IMG/VR virus record: IMGVR_UViG_3300020045_011289
Location: 1 to 24,216 of that record
Reading direction: 5' to 3' (one strand)
DNA: 24,216 nt
From: a virus
Lineage: Duplodnaviria; Caudoviricetes
The notes beneath the pieces were generated by a model, which ran no database searches, was not told the origin of the DNA, and saw nothing but the letters and a program-made list of their open reading frames with translations. Of this stretch, positions 911 to 22,558 are shown piece by piece (position 1 is the first letter of the stretch; each line of letters begins with the position of its first letter). The position numbers and the translations under genes were made by a program.

Positions 911-1114
911 ATGCGAGTTGATCAACAGCAAGAGCAACGCCCACCACAACAAGACCTGGAAAGTAAGTTCCGTGATAGCCTACAGGATGTAGTGATTGTA
1001 GCGGAACGCCTAGCACCTTATTGCAAAGATGTGGAAGAATTGCTGGGTATGCTTAGGCTTGGTATCGAGTCCGATGGTCAGCTTAGGCTCTTAATGGGAA
1101 AGATTAAACGATGA
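911..1114 (+). CDS. hypothetical protein (67 aa)
   Basis: AGGAG RBS at 901-905; stop overlaps the protease start (ATGA 1111-1114), indicating translational coupling. Confidence 0.75.
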   Translation: MRVDQQQEQRPPQQDLESKFRDSLQDVVIVAERLAPYCKDVEELLGMLRLGIESDGQLRLLMGKIKR

Positions 1115-3501
1115 TGCCATCCCCTCCCCCACTAGGTTCTACCTTCACCATGATGGAAGGCCGTAAAGACCTGGATACCAGCCAATATGGCTACAAATTG
1201 GCAGGTTCGTCCTACGGTCTGGATACGGCCTATGGTGAGTTTGATATTGATGAAAAGCGGATGGCCCTACGTTTCCCATTTGCGGACGGAAATCGCAGAG
1301 ATGGGGTCGGCGACCTGTTGGAGGTTGGGGGTATCCGCACGGATCGACATGAGAAAAATAGGATAGTTCTCTTTGACCACGGCAAGCAAGTCCAGCTGCC
1401 TATCGGTAAAGCCGAAGACCCCAATACAGGCGCATATACGGTAGAGATAGACCCTGTAGGCCGCAAGGCTTGGCTTACTTGCTTTTTCTATCAGGGGAAG
1501 GGCTTGCCGGGAGCTAAGCCCCACGATGAGTATGACCACGCTCTTTTCTGTGAGCAACTTTTCGATCTAGCTGCCAAGCGGTACATACGCGCGGGTAGCA
1601 TAGGCTACCAAGTGGTAAAGGCCCTGAAGCTACCAGCGGATTACGAACAAGGTACGCCTCCGGGGCTACACTTGCTTGTAACCCTGATGTTAGAGGGTAG
1701 CCTAGTGGTGCTACCAGCCAATGGCGATACGGTTCGTAAGGCCCTAGCCCTTCCCCAGGTATGTGGTAAGGCACTATCGCCGGTGTTGGTAAAGAGCCTC
1801 TCACCTTATGCCGAGCCTACTAAGGTAATGGCAAATGGGATTGGCACGAAAGCGAGCCAGTTTTCTAGGGGTAATTTCTCTGTTGGGCAAAAAGTTGTCT
1901 GGAATAGTAGAACTGGCCCGGTAGTAGCCGAGTTCCGGGGCCAGTTAATGGGCTTAGATGGTTATGAGGCCACAATTATTGTAAGAGAGGAAGGTAGTTC
2001 ACCCTTCCAAGTAACCGTACCCATTATGGAGATAAAACAGAAAAACCTATCCCCACAAAGCAAAGCCTTAGAGCAGATTTATAGAGGGTGTAAGATTGAA
2101 AAAATAGAGGCCCAACAGGTGGGTTACACATCCAATCGAAGCACTCTTAACAAGGTTGGCATCGACACAAGCAGAAAATTCAGTGGGTACGAAATTACCT
2201 TACCGGACGGCGGTTCTAAGGTAGTGGATAAATTGTCCGAGGCAAAAAGATATATTGACAACTATCTTGGCCCCGATGAAAAAAGTCTTGAAGGTGGTTT
2301 AGCCGATACCACCCCTACAAGCTCTTTCTCTCAGGAGAATGGAAAGATGGAAAGCGGAGCAGCAAGCAAAAACATCAAATCCATCCGAGCTAAGTACAAG
2401 CGTAAGGGCTTTGATGACCCTGAGTCTTTTTCTCAGGAGGCTTGGAGGCGCGGAGATAAGACCGAAAAACCGCACGTTAGAACTATTAGAACAAATCGGA
2501 TGCAAAATTTAATAGATGCTACGGATAGGTATACGCTAGGGGATGTAGACAGAGGGACATTTGACTCAGGTAACAGATACCAAATATCCAAACAGTCTTT
2601 TGGGTATATGATTTGGGATTCCCAAGCCAGAGAAAGCAAGAACTGTGAGATAAAAAGCCTTCGTAAGGGCTTGGAGGGTGGAGAATCTTACTCTAAAGCC
2701 TTTAATGTTGGTGATATGGTGGAAAACACTTATGCAGGGTCAGGGGCACCAGCTTGGCAACCCGGAAAAGTGGTAGAGGTTGCTAAGCAAAGAAAGCAAT
2801 CATCTAGAGACCAATTTGGCAACCGTGAGTCCCATCAACCAGAAACGCGCTACCGGGTAAACTTTAATGGACGTGACTATTGGGTAGATGAGGGGGCTTT
2901 AGAATTGGCTGGTACTAAAAGCCTTTCCTCCATCCGACGGAAGTATATGGCTAAGGCTATTCCTGTTGCTGCCGACGTTGCAAAGCGTATTTTACAAAGA
3001 CTATCCCCAGGGGAGGCTAAAACGATTAGCGGTATCTCTGTAAGACGTACCAAGCCGGGATTAGACAGCCGATTTAACCAAGAGGACGGCTTTGTTATTG
3101 ACGGAAACCAGATGGGGCTAGAAAGAGCTTCCGAAAAGATAGCAGAACTCACAGGAGGAAAGAGCCTTGAGACAAGCAAAAGTCTAAACTACAAATCCCT
3201 TAACGTTCGCTATCGCAGCAAGGTCATCAAGGGCTTTGCCGAAGTGCAAGTAAAGTTTGCTCTACCCGACCGGGATCGTACCAAACAGGCTGCTATGTTT
3301 GCCGAAATGGAAGCCAACGGTTATGGTAGGCCCCAAGGGGTACGCTGGAGTGAGGACGGTAAAGACCTAGCTAGCACGGCGGAAAACGTATCTTACAAGT
3401 TCTGTTTGGAACCCGGCAAATCCTTACCAGCGGAATTGGAAAAGCTCAGCACTATTGCTGCAAAGCATGGTGCTAGGTTAGTAGGTAATACCAAGAGTTA
3501 A
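1111..3501 (+). CDS. HK97-type prohead maturation protease (aa ~45-208) with a ~550-aa multi-domain C-terminal extension
   Basis: Caudoviral prohead protease motifs: D-x-x-G-D (RDGVGD), VLFDH...PIGK (catalytic His), RAGSIGY (catalytic Ser), LEGSLVVLPAN. Located upstream of the major capsid gene. Confidence 0.9.
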   Translation: MMPSPPPLGSTFTMMEGRKDLDTSQYGYKLAGSSYGLDTAYGEFDIDEKRMALRFPFADGNRRDGVGDLLEVGGIRTDRHEKNRIVLFDHGKQVQLPIGKAEDPNTGAYTVEIDPVGRKAWLTCFFYQGKGLPGAKPHDEYDHALFCEQLFDLAAKRYIRAGSIGYQVVKALKLPADYEQGTPPGLHLLVTLMLEGSLVVLPANGDTVRKALALPQVCGKALSPVLVKSLSPYAEPTKVMANGIGTKASQFSRGNFSVGQKVVWNSRTGPVVAEFRGQLMGLDGYEATIIVREEGSSPFQVTVPIMEIKQKNLSPQSKALEQIYRGCKIEKIEAQQVGYTSNRSTLNKVGIDTSRKFSGYEITLPDGGSKVVDKLSEAKRYIDNYLGPDEKSLEGGLADTTPTSSFSQENGKMESGAASKNIKSIRAKYKRKGFDDPESFSQEAWRRGDKTEKPHVRTIRTNRMQNLIDATDRYTLGDVDRGTFDSGNRYQISKQSFGYMIWDSQARESKNCEIKSLRKGLEGGESYSKAFNVGDMVENTYAGSGAPAWQPGKVVEVAKQRKQSSRDQFGNRESHQPETRYRVNFNGRDYWVDEGALELAGTKSLSSIRRKYMAKAIPVAADVAKRILQRLSPGEAKTISGISVRRTKPGLDSRFNQEDGFVIDGNQMGLERASEKIAELTGGKSLETSKSLNYKSLNVRYRSKVIKGFAEVQVKFALPDRDRTKQAAMFAEMEANGYGRPQGVRWSEDGKDLASTAENVSYKFCLEPGKSLPAELEKLSTIAAKHGARLVGNTKS

Positions 3502-3522
3502 ACCCTAATAGGAACACAAAGA

Positions 3523-5151
3523 ATGCGCGTTAATACTAAGGGAGGAACGGAGTACACGGATTATGATTTTCAAAGAATGAATACCTCTGATTTGCAAAAA
3601 GTAGTTAGCAATGGAAGCCAGAACGAAATCAGAGGGGCACGACAAGAGCTAAATCATAGACTAGAAATTAGGGATAAAACCGGAAAAATGCCACAACCTT
3701 TGCCTAAGAGCAATTCTAATATGCACACTAAAGCCGATCCTTCTATGAATCCAACCGAAGCCCCCCCTACTGACCTAGACGAACAAATGGAAGGGGACGA
3801 ACCCCTGGAGCCGTTTGGCGCCCAGGTACTCCGCCGTATCCATGAGAACCATGTAGTTCTTATGGAAGAATACGACGAAGCCATCGAACTGCTAGACCAT
3901 CCAGAGGTGAAGAAGCACCTTACCAAATTGCTCCAGGGTATCGAAGCTACCCTAACAGCCACGGAAGGTTTGCTAGGTAAGCATTATCCCGATTTGCCTG
4001 GCATTGAAGGCGCGGAGAATAAGGGCTTGGATGAAGAGAGTGAGATTGAAGAAGAGGAAGAAGCCCCTGCTGATGAAGCTGCCGAGGCCATGCTGGAAAA
4101 GGGCCTACGGGGCCGAGCTAAGCAAATGTTTCGGCAGTACAAGTCTTGGGCCAAGGCAATGGGGGTTTGTCCTGGCTGCGGTAAGGAAGATTGCGGTTGT
4201 ACGGAAGAACCACCGCAAAAGGCTGCTCCCAAGTTTTCCACCAAACGCCTCGTCAAGACCATCGGTAAGGTACTAGGTAAAGACCTCACGGAAGATGAAG
4301 TAGGCGAGGTGGTTGATAAGCTGGAAACGGAAGCGTCGGACACAGAGCCCGATACCAAAGCCCTTACCCAAAGGATTTGCAAGGCCCTTGGTAAGGATAT
4401 GTCAGACGACGAAACCACCGAAATGATGGGCCAAGTAGATGAGCAAATGGAGCAAAAATCCATCCTCTGCAAATCCCATAAAGATGCCGTGAGGGGAGCC
4501 GCTGGCTTCCTGGAAGAAGCTGGCCAACACTCAGGTAATTGGGAAGATGAACACCGTATGAAGGCTATGTCTTGGCATAAGGCCCTAAGTGAAGTAGGTG
4601 CCGACCCCGAGCCTGATATGGTCGAAGGCGCGGATATGGTAGATGAAGGTATGCCAGGGGAGATGGGGCAAAAGGCAGGTTTTGAGTTAGTCTACGGTAA
4701 TGGAGGGCATGGTGGCCCTTATAGCAGCTTGGAGGAAGCTAGAAACAGAGCACAACAATTGCTTCAAGGGTCAAGGACCGAGCGGTCTATTTATATTGTT
4801 CCTCGGGATGAAAGAACTTTGGACCGAAGAAATGCTGTAGAAGAAGTCAGAAAAGACGAAAAGGGGCTAAGATTTGTAAAAGCAATGGCTGGGGTACAGG
4901 TTAATAACGCGGTCTCAGTTAGCGGAAATCAAGGTATAGTTACAGCCGTAGACAAAACAAACCAAACTGCGGATGTAAAGTTTAACAACGGACATACCGT
5001 TGTAGACATCTCCTTCGACGATCTAACTTGGGAGGGAGGTAAATCCATCACGCCCCAAGCAACCAAAGCCCTTGCCTCTACCTTTACGCAACAAAGCAAG
5101 CAATTGGAAGACCTAAACAAGCAACTGGCAAAGTTGTCGAAAGTCCTGTAA
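3523..5151 (+). CDS. scaffold-like/internal head protein with inserted small domains
   Basis: Lies between protease and capsid genes. Acidic helical core, CPGCGKEDCGC cluster, internal duplication (…IGKVLGKDLTEDE… / …ICKALGKDMSDDE…), and a C-terminal coiled-coil-like helix. Confidence 0.6.
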   Translation: MRVNTKGGTEYTDYDFQRMNTSDLQKVVSNGSQNEIRGARQELNHRLEIRDKTGKMPQPLPKSNSNMHTKADPSMNPTEAPPTDLDEQMEGDEPLEPFGAQVLRRIHENHVVLMEEYDEAIELLDHPEVKKHLTKLLQGIEATLTATEGLLGKHYPDLPGIEGAENKGLDEESEIEEEEEAPADEAAEAMLEKGLRGRAKQMFRQYKSWAKAMGVCPGCGKEDCGCTEEPPQKAAPKFSTKRLVKTIGKVLGKDLTEDEVGEVVDKLETEASDTEPDTKALTQRICKALGKDMSDDETTEMMGQVDEQMEQKSILCKSHKDAVRGAAGFLEEAGQHSGNWEDEHRMKAMSWHKALSEVGADPEPDMVEGADMVDEGMPGEMGQKAGFELVYGNGGHGGPYSSLEEARNRAQQLLQGSRTERSIYIVPRDERTLDRRNAVEEVRKDEKGLRFVKAMAGVQVNNAVSVSGNQGIVTAVDKTNQTADVKFNNGHTVVDISFDDLTWEGGKSITPQATKALASTFTQQSKQLEDLNKQLAKLSKVL

Positions 5152-5209: not shown

Positions 5210-6655
5210 ATGGCCGTAAGTGAACTCGAAACTCTGCAAACCCTGGCCAAGCAAAATAGCGAGGGCCTCAATGCTGTAACGAAGTCCCTGGGTGCCTTGG
5301 TAGACCGGCTGAATAAGGCTCCGGCCTACCCCAAGGGTGCCAATCCGGGTTCGGTCTTTGGTGCTCCCCACGCGCGGAATGGTGAAGACCCGCTGTCGAG
5401 TAGGGGCTTTTCCTTTCTCAAAATGTTCGGGGTTATGCAAAACTTGGTTCCCCCCGAAGATGCCAAGATCGAAATGGACGTACACAATCGTCTCTCCAAG
5501 TGTTTCCATCAGGGCTACGATTGGCAAGCTGGTGGGCAGCTAGGCGTCTCGCGGTTTATGGCCCCTCTGGCCTCCAATTTCTTCGAGGAATCCAGGGTAG
5601 ACCGCAACTTCCGTAGTGAGATGAAGAGTCTCATTATGGGCGGCGTGGATGGGAGCATGGACCTCCCCGACGAAATGCGGTGGATGCGAACCAAGTCCCT
5701 TTCGGCTATGGGCTATGGCAAGAAGGATTTGTCTTGGTTGAATGAATTGACGGGCGGTGCCTTGGTTGCACCCCCGGAGATGGGCGAGCTTATCGAGCTG
5801 CTTCGAAACAAGGAAGCCTTGGTCCAGGCTGGTGCGCGGACTGTTCCCTTGCCGGCCCAAGGTCGGTTGAAGTATCCCCGCCAGACCGCAGCCTCCAATA
5901 CCTATTGGGTAGGCGAAAATAAGGCTATTACTCAGAGCGAAATCGGTACGGGTGAAGTGACCTTGCAAGCCAAGAAATTGGCCGTGTTGATTAAGTCCCC
6001 CAACGAGCTTATCCGCTTTGCCAACCCCGCAGCGGAAGCCTTGGTCCGGGACGATATTACCAAGTCTTTGGCCTTGGGTCTGGACCTGGCTGGCCTGGAA
6101 GGTGCGGGCGGTGATACGCGCCCCCGTGGTATCCTGAATCTTCAGGGTATCAACACTATCTCCAGCAGCCGACAAACAGCTGACGGTGATTATCTGGTAG
6201 GTACGGACCTCTACCGTATGGTTGCTGCAGTGGAAGAAAGCAATGCGGAATTTGAAGGCTGGATTCTCCGCCCGAAGTCCCTGTACAAATACTACCAGCT
6301 TCGTTCGGATGCCGTTGCCCAGGGTGATGCTGCCGGCCCGTTCTTGTTCAACCTCATCCGTGAGGCCGGTGAAGGCGTCAAGGCTACCTTGGCGGGCTAC
6401 CCCGTTACCAAGAGCAATCAGGTTAGCCAGGTACGCTCCAAGGGTGCCTCTAGCAACCTTACCTACGTCTTGGGTGGTATGTTCTCGGATGTGTTGATCG
6501 GTATGTTCGGTGGTGTGGAATTCGCTACCACAACCCAGGGCGATACCAGCTTCACGAATGACCAAACGTGGATCCGTGGTATCCTCACAGCTGACATCGC
6601 GGTCCGCCATGAAGCGGCTTTCTCGTTGCTGGACAACCTGCAAACTACTCTGTAA
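5210..6655 (+). CDS. HK97-fold major capsid protein with N-terminal delta-like domain
   Basis: GGAGG RBS. Typical HK97-family motifs: TGGALVAPPE..ELIELLR, YPRQT..YWVGE, VTLQAKKLA, G-x-G..PRGILN, LAGYPV, F.NDQT.IR....D..VRH..AF. Confidence 0.95.
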   Translation: MAVSELETLQTLAKQNSEGLNAVTKSLGALVDRLNKAPAYPKGANPGSVFGAPHARNGEDPLSSRGFSFLKMFGVMQNLVPPEDAKIEMDVHNRLSKCFHQGYDWQAGGQLGVSRFMAPLASNFFEESRVDRNFRSEMKSLIMGGVDGSMDLPDEMRWMRTKSLSAMGYGKKDLSWLNELTGGALVAPPEMGELIELLRNKEALVQAGARTVPLPAQGRLKYPRQTAASNTYWVGENKAITQSEIGTGEVTLQAKKLAVLIKSPNELIRFANPAAEALVRDDITKSLALGLDLAGLEGAGGDTRPRGILNLQGINTISSSRQTADGDYLVGTDLYRMVAAVEESNAEFEGWILRPKSLYKYYQLRSDAVAQGDAAGPFLFNLIREAGEGVKATLAGYPVTKSNQVSQVRSKGASSNLTYVLGGMFSDVLIGMFGGVEFATTTQGDTSFTNDQTWIRGILTADIAVRHEAAFSLLDNLQTTL

Positions 6656-8400: not shown

Positions 8401-8889
8401 ATGGCATCTAACTATTACGTTAATGGCAATACGCTGGTAACGGCAGACGGTTCCGAGCTTGGCCTTAGTGAAGGTTCCGTTACCATTTCCATACAGCCCA
8501 AGCACCTTGATATTAAGGTTAGCACTTTCGGGGAAACTGTACCCGAAATGCAAGCCATGCTGGCCGAGGCTACCATCAATATGGTACTGGTTTACTTTGA
8601 CCCCGACGTGGTAGAGACGGTTCTTCGCAAAAGCATGGCAGCGGGTACACTCGGCCAAATGCCGGTTGCGGGTACACTGATGGGGGCTGGTGGTTTCTTC
8701 ACTAGCCTCAAGGTCAATAGCCCCACGGGTGGTAGGCCCTGGACCTTCCCCGGTGCCGTGCTTACAGGGAACCCAGTTAGCTGGCCTCTGGGTAACGAGC
8801 GGACCTTGCTGCAAATGAACTTCCGGGCTATCCCCTACTCCAGCGACCCTCACACGGCAGCCGGAGCCGTCTTATTCAGCCGCGCCTAA
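8401..8889 (+). CDS. tail tube-like protein, paralog 1
   Basis: ELGLSEGSVTISIQP motif matches the 'lG.t.ggv.i' tail-tube pattern; size 162 aa; position between neck and chaperone genes. Confidence 0.7.
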   Translation: MASNYYVNGNTLVTADGSELGLSEGSVTISIQPKHLDIKVSTFGETVPEMQAMLAEATINMVLVYFDPDVVETVLRKSMAAGTLGQMPVAGTLMGAGGFFTSLKVNSPTGGRPWTFPGAVLTGNPVSWPLGNERTLLQMNFRAIPYSSDPHTAAGAVLFSRA

Positions 8890-8925: not shown

Positions 8926-9411
8926 ATGGCCAACGGCTTTTACATCCAGGGGAATACTACTGTAACCACCACGGAAGGCGAATTGGGCTACAGTGAGGGA
9001 CTTATCAAGGTCTCCCCGATGTTCCATTATCGGGACATAAACTCAGACGACTTTCCTAACTCCCCGGCTTTTGTGTTATGGATGCTAGGAGAAGTTTCTA
9101 TCGAAATGACCTTAGTTTATTTCGACCCTACTATCCTCTATCAGATAATGGAGGTTAGTATGGGTAACGCTTCTGTATTGGGTACGTTCGGTCCAGCAGG
9201 TAAAATAATGGCGGGTACGGTACTTACCCTGGAAACAGAGGGGGGAGAAAACAGCGATGAGTGGTCCTTCCCTAAAGCCTTTCTCTCAGAAAGACCTGTG
9301 GTATGGCCACTAGGAAACGAGCGTAGTGCAGTTAGCCTAACCTGGAGAGCCGTTGGTACACCCACAGCTAGTACCAATATGGTTAGCAGCGGAGTAAGGT
9401 TGTTTAGTTAG
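8926..9411 (+). CDS. tail tube-like protein, paralog 2
   Basis: Colinear with 8401-8889: GNT.VT..G-ELG.SEG, M.LVYFDP, W.FP.A.L...PV.WPLGNER, and VLFS/RLFS ends. Confidence 0.7.
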   Translation: MANGFYIQGNTTVTTTEGELGYSEGLIKVSPMFHYRDINSDDFPNSPAFVLWMLGEVSIEMTLVYFDPTILYQIMEVSMGNASVLGTFGPAGKIMAGTVLTLETEGGENSDEWSFPKAFLSERPVVWPLGNERSAVSLTWRAVGTPTASTNMVSSGVRLFS

Positions 9412-10054: not shown

Positions 10055-10897
10055 ATGAGCATAGCTTCCGTATTAGCAGCCTTAGCACCCAAGGTTGCCC
10101 AATTAGCCTCTGCCCAGGCCAATGGTGGGCGTGGTATGCTTGCTAATGCCTATGCCCAATATGGTCGAAGCCTGCAATTCGCTAACGCCGATCCACCTCC
10201 AGGTATGAGCGAAGCGGAACGGGTTAAGTGGCGGCAAGAACAAAGGCAAAGGCGCTTACAGGGCATCCAGATACAAGAGCAAGGAGCCCCCCAACTGGAG
10301 GAAACCCTTGGCCAAGCTGGCAAGATTGCTAATCAGATAAACCCTTTTGGCAAGAGCGGGACACAAGCGGCTAGTGGTTTACTCCAGGGGGCTGGTAGTG
10401 CAGCTGGTATGATGGGCGGACCCTGGGGTAAAGCAGCAGAGGTAGGGCTAAAATTCACGGCTGCTCTAGTGGAGTCCATAGACAAGCTCCGTAATTGGGG
10501 CAACCAATTGCATGAAAACAATATGCAATTCGCGGAGTATAGTGCTAGTATGGCCCGCGTGCAAGCTGCCAGTGAGGTCCAAGAATTCTACTTAAAGCAA
10601 TCTCAGGGCGACCGTAGGGCACAAAGCGCGGAGTATCTATCGGAAAGCCGGGCCGATATGAATAAGGCTTTCGCACCCCTGGAGAATCTTTGGGCCAAGG
10701 TAGAAAATTATGTAAGTGGTTCTTTGATGAAAGCCGTGACGAACCTGATGCTGCCCGTAACTGTTATTGCCGAGTTCTTAGATAGTGCTACCTCCGGAGA
10801 TACCGGAGATAGTATTGATGCCTCCCGCTGGGCTTACGAAGTTGCCCAGGGCGACCACGAAAGAGTTATCCAAAGTAGACCCAGGAATATGCGATGA
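10055..10897 (+). CDS. short tape-measure-like protein (280 aa)
   Basis: Immediately after G/GT; A/Q/G-rich helical sequence with GAAGMMGGPWG and F.PLENLW.K patterns typical of tape measures. Confidence 0.6.
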   Translation: MSIASVLAALAPKVAQLASAQANGGRGMLANAYAQYGRSLQFANADPPPGMSEAERVKWRQEQRQRRLQGIQIQEQGAPQLEETLGQAGKIANQINPFGKSGTQAASGLLQGAGSAAGMMGGPWGKAAEVGLKFTAALVESIDKLRNWGNQLHENNMQFAEYSASMARVQAASEVQEFYLKQSQGDRRAQSAEYLSESRADMNKAFAPLENLWAKVENYVSGSLMKAVTNLMLPVTVIAEFLDSATSGDTGDSIDASRWAYEVAQGDHERVIQSRPRNMR

Positions 10898-20086: not shown

Positions 20087-20584
20087 ATGGGCTTTTTCAG
20101 TAAGATTGCGGGTAAGATTGCTGGACTATTAGGCAAGAAAAAGCCTACCCCAGCCAAGAAACAGAGGGACCAAGGACGATTTGGGAGAACACATGGGGGC
20201 GGAACCTACGGCAACTTGGGCGTTGCAGCCGGTTCGCTAAAACCAAGAGCCGACTTTGCTACCTCTGGCAAAACAGAGGCTGACCTAAGCCCAGAGAATG
20301 TAGCCAAGTGGCGAAGCCTCACCAAAGAGGAAGCGGAAGGTTTCCTCAATGGTGAGATTCTTTTTGTGCATAGCAGTAATGTTGCGGCCATGCAGTGGCA
20401 TGAAGAAACTAGCCAATTGATGGTAGAGTTCCTCAATGGTAGCGCGTATCTGTATGACAATTGTGATGAACGAATTGCTGTAGAGGCACTAAACTCGTTT
20501 TCAAAAGGAAATTTTATTTGGAACGAGATGCGCGTAAGAGGGTCTAAGACAGCCCACAAGCGACCATATCGCCGTCTACGCTAA
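20087..20584 (+). CDS. KTSC-domain protein with basic amphipathic N-terminus
   Basis: AGGAG RBS. SSNVAAMQW.E....LMVEFLNGSAYLYDN........L.S.SKG.FIW is the KTSC signature. Confidence 0.85.
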   Translation: MGFFSKIAGKIAGLLGKKKPTPAKKQRDQGRFGRTHGGGTYGNLGVAAGSLKPRADFATSGKTEADLSPENVAKWRSLTKEEAEGFLNGEILFVHSSNVAAMQWHEETSQLMVEFLNGSAYLYDNCDERIAVEALNSFSKGNFIWNEMRVRGSKTAHKRPYRRLR

Positions 20585-21120
20585 ACGATTGTTCTCCATA
20601 TTTCCCCTCGCTTTATTTTGATAACAAATTTCGGGGTTTCGTGCATCGCCCTAGCTATATCAACGCTCCTTACACCATTCCTTAATAGGCGTTTTATCTC
20701 TCTAATCTTCTCATTTGTTCGCCTTGACCTTGCTCTATCCTCTCCGAGTTTTAATTTCCCATTCCGCATAGCGTCCGCAAGGTTTTCTTTTCTTGTTCCA
20801 TACTCTAAGTTTTCCAGTCTGTTATCATTGCCAACGTCATTAAGATGCCTAACCTCTTCCCCTTCAGGGCATGGCCCAACAAACGCCAAAAGAACAAGTT
20901 GATGAACGAAGAACCTCTCGGGCTTTCCTACCTCTCGGAATAAATCAACATAAGTATGTTTATACTTAGCCCTTGTTTTTGGCTTCATTACCCACCAAGG
21001 GCCTGTTCTACGGGTTTTTGACCCGTAGACCCGATTGCTGTAGACTACGCCATCCGCGCTTACTACATAGTTGGGGAAGCCTGGAATTGGTTTAGTGCCA
21101 TGAGGTGGAACGTAAGGCAT
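20581..21120 (-). CDS. NUMOD4-HNH homing endonuclease with C-terminal HTH-like segment
   Basis: KPIPGFPNYVVSADGVVYS (NUMOD4); VHQLVLLAFVGPCPEG..VRHLND...DNRLENLEYGTRKEN (HNH). Confidence 0.9.
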   Translation of the reverse strand: MPYVPPHGTKPIPGFPNYVVSADGVVYSNRVYGSKTRRTGPWWVMKPKTRAKYKHTYVDLFREVGKPERFFVHQLVLLAFVGPCPEGEEVRHLNDVGNDNRLENLEYGTRKENLADAMRNGKLKLGEDRARSRRTNEKIREIKRLLRNGVRSVDIARAMHETPKFVIKIKRGEIWRTIV

Positions 21121-21220: not shown

Positions 21221-21815
21221 AAGAGGTAGCAAAAGCCTTAGTAACAACTTCGGCAAAATCTTCCCTAGCTCGAATTTTTACGTTGGCTATGTGCCAAACG
21301 CTACTAGGGGAAAAATCATTCAGTAGATGTATAGTAGCCCACATGGCAGCATAAGCATTATAGCAGTTGGGTTTGTATTTCCTGGTTGGCAAGAATTCTC
21401 TTAGGGCCTGTTTGGCCTCCTCCCTACCGCTGGGGTCCAGGTCCTCTAGTACCTTCCTCACTGGTTGCGGTATGGTTATCTCTTCCTCTAAACCAAGAAC
21501 ACAGTCGGCAGCAAACCGCAATAAATGACCCCTCATAGGTACGCGCTTATTGATTCTTCTCCGCTGACCTACACATTTTGCCATCGGTGGACCACCCTTT
21601 TTTAGATCACCCTCTAGGTCTACCTGGCACAGATATAGCTCGGAATATGGCATAACATAAGGGCCATAATAGAGAGCATCAAAGGGGTGCTCAGAGCAGT
21701 GGTAGCCAACCTCGCAAAGTACCGTCTCCCTGTCAGTAGACAGCCAAACTCCATTGGGTGGAATCGAAGTACCGTCGAATAGGGCTTCCCCCACAAAGTG
21801 ATAACCGGAAATCAT
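21219..21815 (-). CDS. conserved-type phage hypothetical protein (C-x-x-G-Y-H-C domain plus helical C-terminus)
   Basis: LCEVGYHCSEHPFDAL.Y....LCQVDLEG..K.V pattern is common in phage accessory proteins; ATGA overlap with the sigma gene. Confidence 0.65.
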   Translation of the reverse strand: MISGYHFVGEALFDGTSIPPNGVWLSTDRETVLCEVGYHCSEHPFDALYYGPYVMPYSELYLCQVDLEGDLKKGGPPMAKCVGQRRRINKRVPMRGHLLRFAADCVLGLEEEITIPQPVRKVLEDLDPSGREEAKQALREFLPTRKYKPNCYNAYAAMWATIHLLNDFSPSSVWHIANVKIRAREDFAEVVTKAFATS

Positions 21816-22396
21816 GCTATACCCCTGTGTAAGACTTGCCTCTCTGCAAACCTAGCTTGTACGCGCATTCTCTCTAACGCTCTTAGCCGTACCTGGGCTA
21901 CCGCTTGCCGGCTAACCCCCTGTAGCTCCGCATATTCCATCTCCGACCTTATCTCCTTGCCGTTTAGCCCATACAGAGCAACGATGGTTTGATACTCCCG
22001 TGGAGGTAGACCACTCAGGGCAATTTCAGCATCTAATCTAGCTATAGCCTGCTCTGAATTATCAGGCACAGCAAGGCTATTTGCATGGATATGTTTTGGC
22101 TTCCTATGAGCAAACTTCCCTTCTTTCTTCCGTTCCTTGTCCCTCCAACAACTGCTGGGAACATGGATATTACAATAGTTGTCCCCCAATTTCTGTAGCT
22201 CCCGGTAGACCACGGTATATACCAGGGTACTCATGGCCCCCAGGTCGGGGTTATAAGTTGGGAAAGCCTTTAGGAGAGCCAGGTAAGCGGTTTGCCGGCA
22301 ATCCTCAAACGGCACATGTTTATAGTATTTCTTCCGTATTTTCCCCATTGCAGCCAGTGCCAAAGGTTGATATTTCGCAAATTCTTCGTTTGTCAT
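21812..22396 (-). CDS. phage-encoded sigma-70-family RNA polymerase sigma factor (regions 2 and 4)
   Basis: Region 2: FEDCRQTAYLALLKAFPTYNP...STLV. Region 4: LPPREYQTIVALYGL...YAELQGVSRQAVAQVRLRALERMR. ATG at 22396 has GGAG upstream (alternative start 22408). Confidence 0.85.
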   Translation of the reverse strand: MTNEEFAKYQPLALAAMGKIRKKYYKHVPFEDCRQTAYLALLKAFPTYNPDLGAMSTLVYTVVYRELQKLGDNYCNIHVPSSCWRDKERKKEGKFAHRKPKHIHANSLAVPDNSEQAIARLDAEIALSGLPPREYQTIVALYGLNGKEIRSEMEYAELQGVSRQAVAQVRLRALERMRVQARFAERQVLHRGIA

Positions 22397-22558
22397 GGCT
22401 ATCTCCATACAACCAGGGTTATAACATGCCAGGCAAGGCCCCTAGCGTGCCTTGGGAGGCGTTATTATTGGTTAGCCGGGGTTGGGTTAGGCTTTACCAA
22501 ATAGATGGCTTACAGGGCTTACCAGGGGCCTTAAAACGGTATTACCAAGTTATACTAA

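Follow-up and report, generated by a model that had tools for sequence, protein, structure and literature searches.

Small exchangeable modules between lysine motifs in the head protease and scaffold of a tailed phage: probable protease-processed capsid cargo

The IMG/VR record IMGVR_UViG_3300020045_011289 (Duplodnaviria; Caudoviricetes), analyzed here over its entire length of 24,216 nucleotides (nt) and called the window, has a completeness estimate of 21% and carries a head-tail operon in the order protease (1111-3501, 796 amino acids (aa)), scaffold (3523-5151, 542 aa) and HK97-fold capsid protein (5210-6655, a PF05065 match), followed by adaptor and tail genes; all features up to position 6655 lie on the + strand. 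Beyond its core the protease continues into a long extension, and both this extension and the scaffold contain small modules set between lysine-based motifs. These modules probably represent protease-processed capsid cargo, that is, exchangeable small proteins held between likely lysine cut sites.

A sequence-only reading of this DNA had called the extension and the scaffold rich in such motifs, and counts of K[SAG][LIFMV] against composition-preserving shuffles agree: the protease extension has 14 against 2.9 expected (0 of 5000 shuffles reach 14; the expectation is 3.3 with 30-aa local shuffling) and the scaffold 12 against 2.1 (0 of 5000), an approximately 5-fold enrichment in both, while the 15 open reading frames (ORFs) downstream are not enriched (9 against 8.3; 911 of 2000 shuffles). 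The three motifs previously seen in the N-terminal domain of the capsid protein compare with 0.85 expected (226 of 5000 shuffles), and the mature part of the same protein also has three, against 0.92 (296 of 5000), in line with the caveat that KSL occurs there too. Since the motif was chosen from the window itself, the independent tests are sets of proteins from related phages, gathered by scanning viral and metagenome sequence collections (three of these relatives are 137-164 kb long). In 36 head proteins from 26 phages, the window included and near-duplicates, short fragments and the distant L054 excluded, there are 342 motifs against 90 expected, K-S-L being the most over-represented trimer (74 against 7.1); 18 additional protease or scaffold proteins, one of them not enriched and two close to proteins already counted, contain 240 against 64.0. 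Relatives are non-independent draws, yet most of the extension sequence cannot be aligned between them, so that common descent accounts for only a small part of the motif count. When all ORFs are sorted by genome position, the protease-scaffold region holds 497 motifs against 136 expected, the upstream region 134 against 110, and the region downstream of the capsid gene 92 against 85; in the capsid proteins of relatives the N-domains hold 50 against 15.7 and the mature parts 25 against 17.5, with 20 of these 25 representing a single site that 20 mature capsids have in common. The enrichment is restricted to proteins that undergo degradation as the head matures, and this counts in favor of the cargo reading. 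The spacing of the motifs is uneven as well: distances of 16-44 aa are avoided (22 against 47.7) and those of 45-100 aa favored (61 against 44.1); an excess of very short gaps is not significant.

Splitting at the motifs leaves six pieces in the protease extension, modules 1 to 6 (1852-2064, 2065-2283, 2407-2655, 2698-2919, 2956-3162 and 3232-3495, the last with an internal motif at K770), and three in the scaffold, S1 to S3 (3541-3732, 4675-4863 and 4882-5043), within a few codons of the nine modules drawn earlier. That they are exchanged is visible between close relatives. Protein P0004 and the window protein have the same sequence over residues 147-236 and, one change apart, over residues 695-796; P0004 keeps three linker blocks, and two unrelated modules, one of which is found after module 6 in P0009, replace modules 1-5. 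The loci L045 and L049, whose DNA is >99% identical, differ by a module swap that begins after K-M-A and ends at K-G-M/K-G-L, and by the insertion of an 89-aa module between K-S and K-N-L. Of 57 homology ends, 18 lie no more than 3 aa from a motif, where random placement gives 5.2 (10 of 36 against 3.3 without the commonest family). A search of 1.84 billion representative sequences with the modules gave 73 matches, the repetitive protein P0015 having been dropped before homologues and junctions were counted. If stand-alone is taken to mean a length of no more than the module plus 35 aa, 11 of the 21 homologues of module 1 and 15 of the 30 of module 2 are stand-alone proteins; these are 58-99 aa long and mostly start and stop near the motif-defined module ends (some may be cut gene calls; several lie on contigs of 12-85 kb). 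Other homologues of module 1 belong to polyvalent proteins that also have MutS-I or Zeta domains. Modules 1 and 2 are found in either order (P0007, P0008) and also open a 983-aa polyvalent protein, and where modules are embedded, 49 of 87 internal junctions have a motif (rough background 18%). The modules are real exchangeable units and autonomous proteins. The expectation of conserved cores with modules gained, lost or moved at lysine linkers is borne out in P0004 and in the pair L045/L049; it does not extend to module 6, which is fixed in position.

Along the extension, module 1 is all-beta (SH3-like character unproven); it is followed directly by module 2 and then by a linker region (2284-2406) formed by a 17-aa block common to P0004 and the first basic linker (K423, at 2377-2379, through K432). 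Module 3 has one homologue, P0055. Module 4 has weak SH3/Tudor-type Pfam matches, and its homologues are N-terminal fusions on three major capsid proteins (P0025, P0031 and P0036, of a different capsid lineage, where it precedes K motifs) or part of a 2H-bearing polyprotein. After the second basic linker (2920-2955), module 5 again has a single homologue, in the protease extension of P0054, where it likewise has a basic linker before and a K motif after it. Between modules 5 and 6 (3163-3231) lie three clustered K-S-L motifs together with the basic leader that precedes module 6. Module 6 itself (3232-3498) has a ferredoxin-like fold, predicted with a pLDDT of about 80-90, and 20 homologues, every one of them embedded in a larger protein; it is a position-fixed family domain and not variable cargo. 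In the last slot before the scaffold it occurs in 4 of 26 phages, and an ACT-like domain in 12 of 26 (L004, L005, L008, L009, L011, L012, L016, L034, L039, L044, L045 and L048). The latter is conserved, 75-90 aa long, preceded by a very basic segment and, in the loci examined, mutually exclusive with module 6; no homology between the two was detected by hhalign (1.2%). Both more likely serve assembly. Among the cargo of relatives there are also modules resembling ribosome modulation factor (PF04957), at L012:7638-7790 and in the protease extensions of L041 and L044 (best E 3.8e-07, above the cut-off in L044), which are possible ribosome-directed effectors.

In the scaffold, module S1 has no homologue among the sequences gathered for this analysis, S2 has one, in the unrelated 146-aa protein P0002, and S3 is KOW/SH3-like by weak match only. 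The remainder of the protein is formed by a conserved helical core (3808-4017), a cysteine cluster C-x-x-C...C-x-C (4156-4209, found by pattern in 11 of 20 scaffolds), a conserved helical repeat present here in one copy (4489-4593) and in two copies in 15 of 20 scaffolds, and a C-terminal amphipathic helix that is typical of these scaffolds and likely capsid-binding (5068-5148). Scaffold and protease are fused in many relatives and separate in others.

The second element of the system is the basic linker, for which the consensus proposed earlier is well supported: [LIVAM]-R-x-[KR]-[YW]-x occurs 34 times in 18 of 25 regions, against 0.4 expected. In the complete genome G002, moreover, 18 ORFs located away from the head locus and all in the same orientation carry K-S-L-R-x-K-Y: in 12 it lies near the N-terminus, in two at the C-terminus and in four internally (reversed-pattern control, 0-1). 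These ORFs of G002 (L061, L062, L063, L078) lie on the minus strand at 2.7 kb, 39.9-48.3 kb and 135-163.4 kb; they are mutually unrelated, several having a TIGR02996-like helix. The protein P0070 is a stand-alone module 2 with the basic linker as an N-terminal leader. By analogy with the layout of the capsid targeting sequence of T4, the segment K-S-L-R-x-K-Y is a candidate capsid-targeting tag. Other phages have linkers of their own: the extensions of L045 (785-5893 and 5716-8793) are filled with repeated SH3-like modules that start with K-M-A and have short double-lysine linkers, L041 has a different repeated linker, and linkers look homogenized within each phage.

The third element is the precursor junction of the capsid protein. 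Its N-terminal, delta-like domain (5210-5725) contains the three motifs mentioned above and ends at the junction K172/D-L-S-W (K172 at 5723-5725); in the mature HK97-fold protein (5726-6655), homology to the solved structure 8gta begins at residue 182. In 20 of 21 relatives K-[ADT]-L-S-W lies ten residues ahead of the capsid fold. HK97 gp5 reads K103/S-L-G at the corresponding junction and is cleaved between K103 and S104, as given in the available part of PMC10275583, so that the conserved K/[ADT]LSW junction, which the sequence-only reading had not included, appears from sequence to parallel the HK97 site. Copies of the capsid junction and N-arm occur in 10 non-capsid ORFs (0 in 20 shuffles), with additional junction copies in G003, G004 and P0026, and the strict copy is present on three of five 2H phosphoesterases, one of which passes the Acb1 cut-off; in the window, no non-capsid protein has a copy. 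It is possible that these copies are anchors to the shell, by mimicry. They follow the pattern K-[ADST]-[LM]-S-...-G-G-A-L-V in non-capsid head proteins and are located at L004:1700-5719, L021:1063-1803, L040:4601-5329, L016:415-2949 and L020:258-5126, in L041, L044, L011 and L034, and near 58.0 kb of G003 and 21.2 kb of G004. The copies on Acb1-like enzymes, and the use of the basic linker as a tag on scattered genes of G002, are new relative to the earlier reading.

The presumed agent of cleavage is the prohead protease core (1111-1800). It has an invariant histidine (His90, 1378-1380) and serine (Ser163, 1597-1599) in 32 of 32 relatives; H90 aligns with H65 of HK97 gp4 and S163 with the serine of its G-M-S-V-G-F, which we take to be the catalytic residues. 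The core ends in a C-G-K...K-S-L segment with K210, K220 and K228 as likely release sites, K210 being present in 27 of 28 and K228 in 28 of 28 sequences that cover the segment. The motifs RKAL, GKAL and VKSL (1738-1800), earlier thought to bracket modules, thus belong to this conserved C-terminal segment of the protease. In every fusion seen the peptidase is N-terminal.

These considerations suggest the following sequence of events. Protease and scaffold, carrying their fusions, would be incorporated into the prohead as happens in HK97 and T4, and the HK97-type head protease of the phage would cut only at accessible K/[SAGDT]-hydrophobic sites; these two steps are very likely. The basic K-S-L-R-x-K-Y helix would serve as an address by binding to the core or shell during assembly, with cuts on both of its sides, and the folded modules of 6-10 kDa would be retained while short linker and scaffold peptides exit; taken together, the events up to this point are probable. 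Finally, the modules would be ejected into the next host cell and act on host defence or take-over, a step suggested by analogy with T4 IPI and the polyvalent proteins; the full chain of five steps, resting in part on this analogy, has somewhat less than an even chance of being correct. As no match to a known effector family or defence-related family was obtained for any of the nine modules, an anti-defence role can only be inferred. The most inclusive form of the proposal, to be held tentatively, is a peptide address system of basic tag and junction copies that loads exchangeable, host-directed small proteins and Acb1-like enzymes, which are freed by the protease and injected with the DNA.

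Several observations weigh against cargo delivery as set out above. Motifs also occur inside folded parts, as the sequence-only reading had named as a reason for doubt: K770 lies in the confidently predicted fold of module 6 and K130 and K170 in the protease, and a motif (with Tyr also allowed) is found inside 10 of 20 homologues of module 6 and 12 of 30 of module 2; the motif alone is therefore insufficient, and access must decide. At the level of junctions, 39 of 57 homology ends are more than 3 aa from any motif, and without module 6 only 21 of 50 internal junctions have one (rough background 18%). In G003 and G004 the tag is confined to the protease gene, and in the window, a record 21% complete, it is seen only within the protease ORF. 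Eleven upstream proteins of relatives, bearing 2H, ART, kinase, topoisomerase IB or metallopeptidase domains, include none that is clearly enriched in motifs (best 39 of 1000 shuffles). The assignment of the protease itself is affected in that the window protein has no PF04586 match above the cut-off (12 of 28 related proteins match weakly, the best at 20.6 bits against a cut-off of 21) and hhalign to HK97 gp4 gives only 1% probability; a PDB sequence search with the protease profile returned chance matches only. Lastly, no significant family or fold was obtained for any module except the generic ferredoxin-like fold of module 6. The nine modules gave nothing above cut-off in Pfam and PHROGs, and the whole proteins nothing useful in PADLOC and NCBIfam; the ESM Atlas has no match of at least 0.9 for S2 and none for module 3, and PDB sequence searches with the profiles of modules 1 and 2 returned chance matches. 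The SH3/KOW-like look attributed earlier to three modules is echoed by Pfam matches with E of 0.0035-0.1, all below the cut-offs. AlphaFold, run without an alignment, was confident only for module 6, whose best PDB match (1nxi, VC0424; Z 8.8, rmsd 4.8, 86 residues aligned) is generic ferredoxin-like similarity and was set aside as a clue to function; a BFVD search with this model was uninformative. The model of modules 1-2 has a mean pLDDT of 44 and no Foldseek match, and the matches of this low-confidence model to phi29 p56 (E 0.24) were given no weight. Also discarded were two matches to repetitive proteins, treated as chance (module 3 with P0015, module 4 with P0024), and a match of module 1 inside a tape-measure-like ORF of L060. 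Recognized polyvalent effector domains are absent from the two proteins of the window and present in upstream genes of relatives; they also adjoin homologues of modules 1 and 4.

The findings can be explained in other ways. The released modules could act in the particle or the producer cell, as assembly cofactors, in DNA or RNA binding or in control of core size, which we regard as a lesser though real possibility; it is compatible with the first steps of the mechanism above and most apt for module 6. It gains from the way in which module 6 and a second, ferredoxin/ACT-like family hold the last slot before the scaffold (4 and 12 of 26 phages), from the basic character of the linkers and from the SH3/KOW-like look of some modules, as such folds often bind nucleic acids. 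T4 IPIII, too, affects head assembly, according to the part of PMC9026906 available. However, the near-identical P0004 does without modules 1-5, and rapid turnover of the modules suits host conflict better than assembly. It is unlikely that the lysine motifs are mere self-destruction sites, with harmless captured genes between the cuts and modules that leave the prohead or are inert: modules recur across protease, capsid N-domain and polyvalent proteins at 40-60% identity, the linker is found again as a tag at the ends of stand-alone, unrelated genes, and copies of the capsid junction are present on 2H enzymes. Such a reading would nevertheless fit an enrichment that is equally strong in the module-free core regions of the scaffold and in the capsid N-domain, the 11-28-nt microhomologies that linker-coding DNA offers for in-frame capture, the lack of a module function among our results and the removal of most core fragments in T4 (PMC9026906, in its accessible text).

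Motif and basic helix might also form a docking signal to shell, scaffold or DNA that is never cut, so that the fusions stay intact multi-domain proteins. Motifs at folded and mature-capsid positions, linkers that are basic amphipathic segments, and tags at C-termini, where a cut frees nothing large, could all be read in this way, yet the motif lies exactly at the HK97-type cut position of the capsid precursor and is enriched in the parts that must be removed, which makes uncut docking very improbable. Protease-processed cargo is thus the reading we prefer for the first four steps.

The phage that carries this system probably infects a planctomycete, on weak evidence: capsid homologues in genome bins are limited to one Phycisphaerales and one Parcubacteria bin, and matches to the TIGR02996 domain, the range of which is presumably the planctomycetes, number 15 in G002, 3 in G003, 1 in G005 and 0 in G004. 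No close cultured phage was found, none covering as much as 80% of the capsid protein. Relatives of the protease were found neither by a pattern scan of genome contigs nor among 401 genomes from the phylum to which the bin containing L057 belongs, and these scans therefore give no evidence of prophages. Upstream of the protease, positions 1-690 hold the 3' end of a gene homologous to the C-terminal domain of the large upstream head-locus proteins of relatives (L005, L012, L016, L025 and L044); this domain has no Pfam match and is, by eye only, presumably acetyltransferase-like. In the tail block, two adjacent, similar-looking tail-tube-like genes (8401-8889 and 8926-9411) are followed by a short, 280-aa tape-measure-like gene (10055-10897), all labeled by eye; a glycosyltransferase (PF00535, 14277-15167) and an FkbM methyltransferase (PF05050, 18872-19732) in the same block possibly modify virion proteins. 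At the operon end are a KTSC-domain protein (20087-20584) and, on the - strand, an HNH endonuclease (20581-21120) and a sigma-70-like factor (21812-22408).

Were the cargo reading true, the motif would give exact ends for dozens of orphan proteins of 6-10 kDa that are active in the first minutes of infection, an early-acting class that holds inhibitors of restriction, CRISPR and CBASS, so that modules could be screened directly. It would make the HK97-type protease and scaffold a cargo platform, beyond T4-like and jumbo heads, provide short tags with which proteins could be loaded into HK97-fold shells, and give widespread unnamed families of small proteins (modules 1 and 2) their first functional context. 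No description of a lysine-linker module system in this phage family was found in the literature searched, which covered few subscription papers; the portion of PMC7824862 available contains nothing on one.

The nearest known arrangement is that of HK97 itself, in which the protease gp4 (PF04586, Peptidase_S78) is likewise encoded upstream of an HK97-fold capsid protein, gp5, with a removable N-domain; the histidine and serine motifs align, the precursor junction is K/x-L, and the N-domain has Lys-x-hydrophobic sites (five in that of HK97). However, gp4 is 225 aa long and carries no cargo, whereas the protease here has a 560-aa modular extension and is accompanied by a scaffold, either separate or fused to it, and the capsid N-domain measures 172 aa. 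The polyvalent proteins (Iyer et al., 2017; PMC5512222) combine disparate domains in one late-gene polypeptide and were proposed to be packaged, processed and injected, and head-protein fusions of Nudix, 2H and ART domains, including a Nudix domain fused to the capsid serine peptidase, are described in PMC9503650, as far as the accessible parts of both papers go. The proteins analyzed here resemble them in that several unrelated domains share one polypeptide among virion genes, and in that relatives carry 2H, ART, Kinase-PolyVal, metallopeptidase and MutS-I domains. In the available text of PMC5512222, processing is mostly ascribed to zincin peptidases and to assemblin-like peptidases at C-termini, and the cargo is mostly enzymatic; here the peptidase is N-terminal, with neither a zincin nor a C-terminal assemblin-like peptidase, the modules are non-enzymatic and 55-90 aa long, and their boundaries can be read from the sequence, in contrast to the same two sources, whose accessible portions yielded no cleavage motif or linker code. 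In T4, the internal proteins IPI-III are small and variable, share a capsid targeting sequence as leader and are trimmed by the prohead protease gp21, with IPI as an anti-restriction precedent (PMC9026906, from the part available). The short N-terminal leader common to unrelated proteins in G002 (12 ORFs) and P0070 resembles this; it is not seen in G003, G004 or the window, which speaks against its being general. In what the same source offers on T4, cuts follow L/I-x-E and the internal proteins are encoded separately with an N-terminal leader; the motif enriched here is lysine-based, likely cut after Lys, and the tag can be an internal linker, a leader at the N-terminus or a tail at the C-terminus. 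The system described here would function like the T4 internal proteins and the polyvalent proteins, yet lacks the peptidase features by which these are defined.

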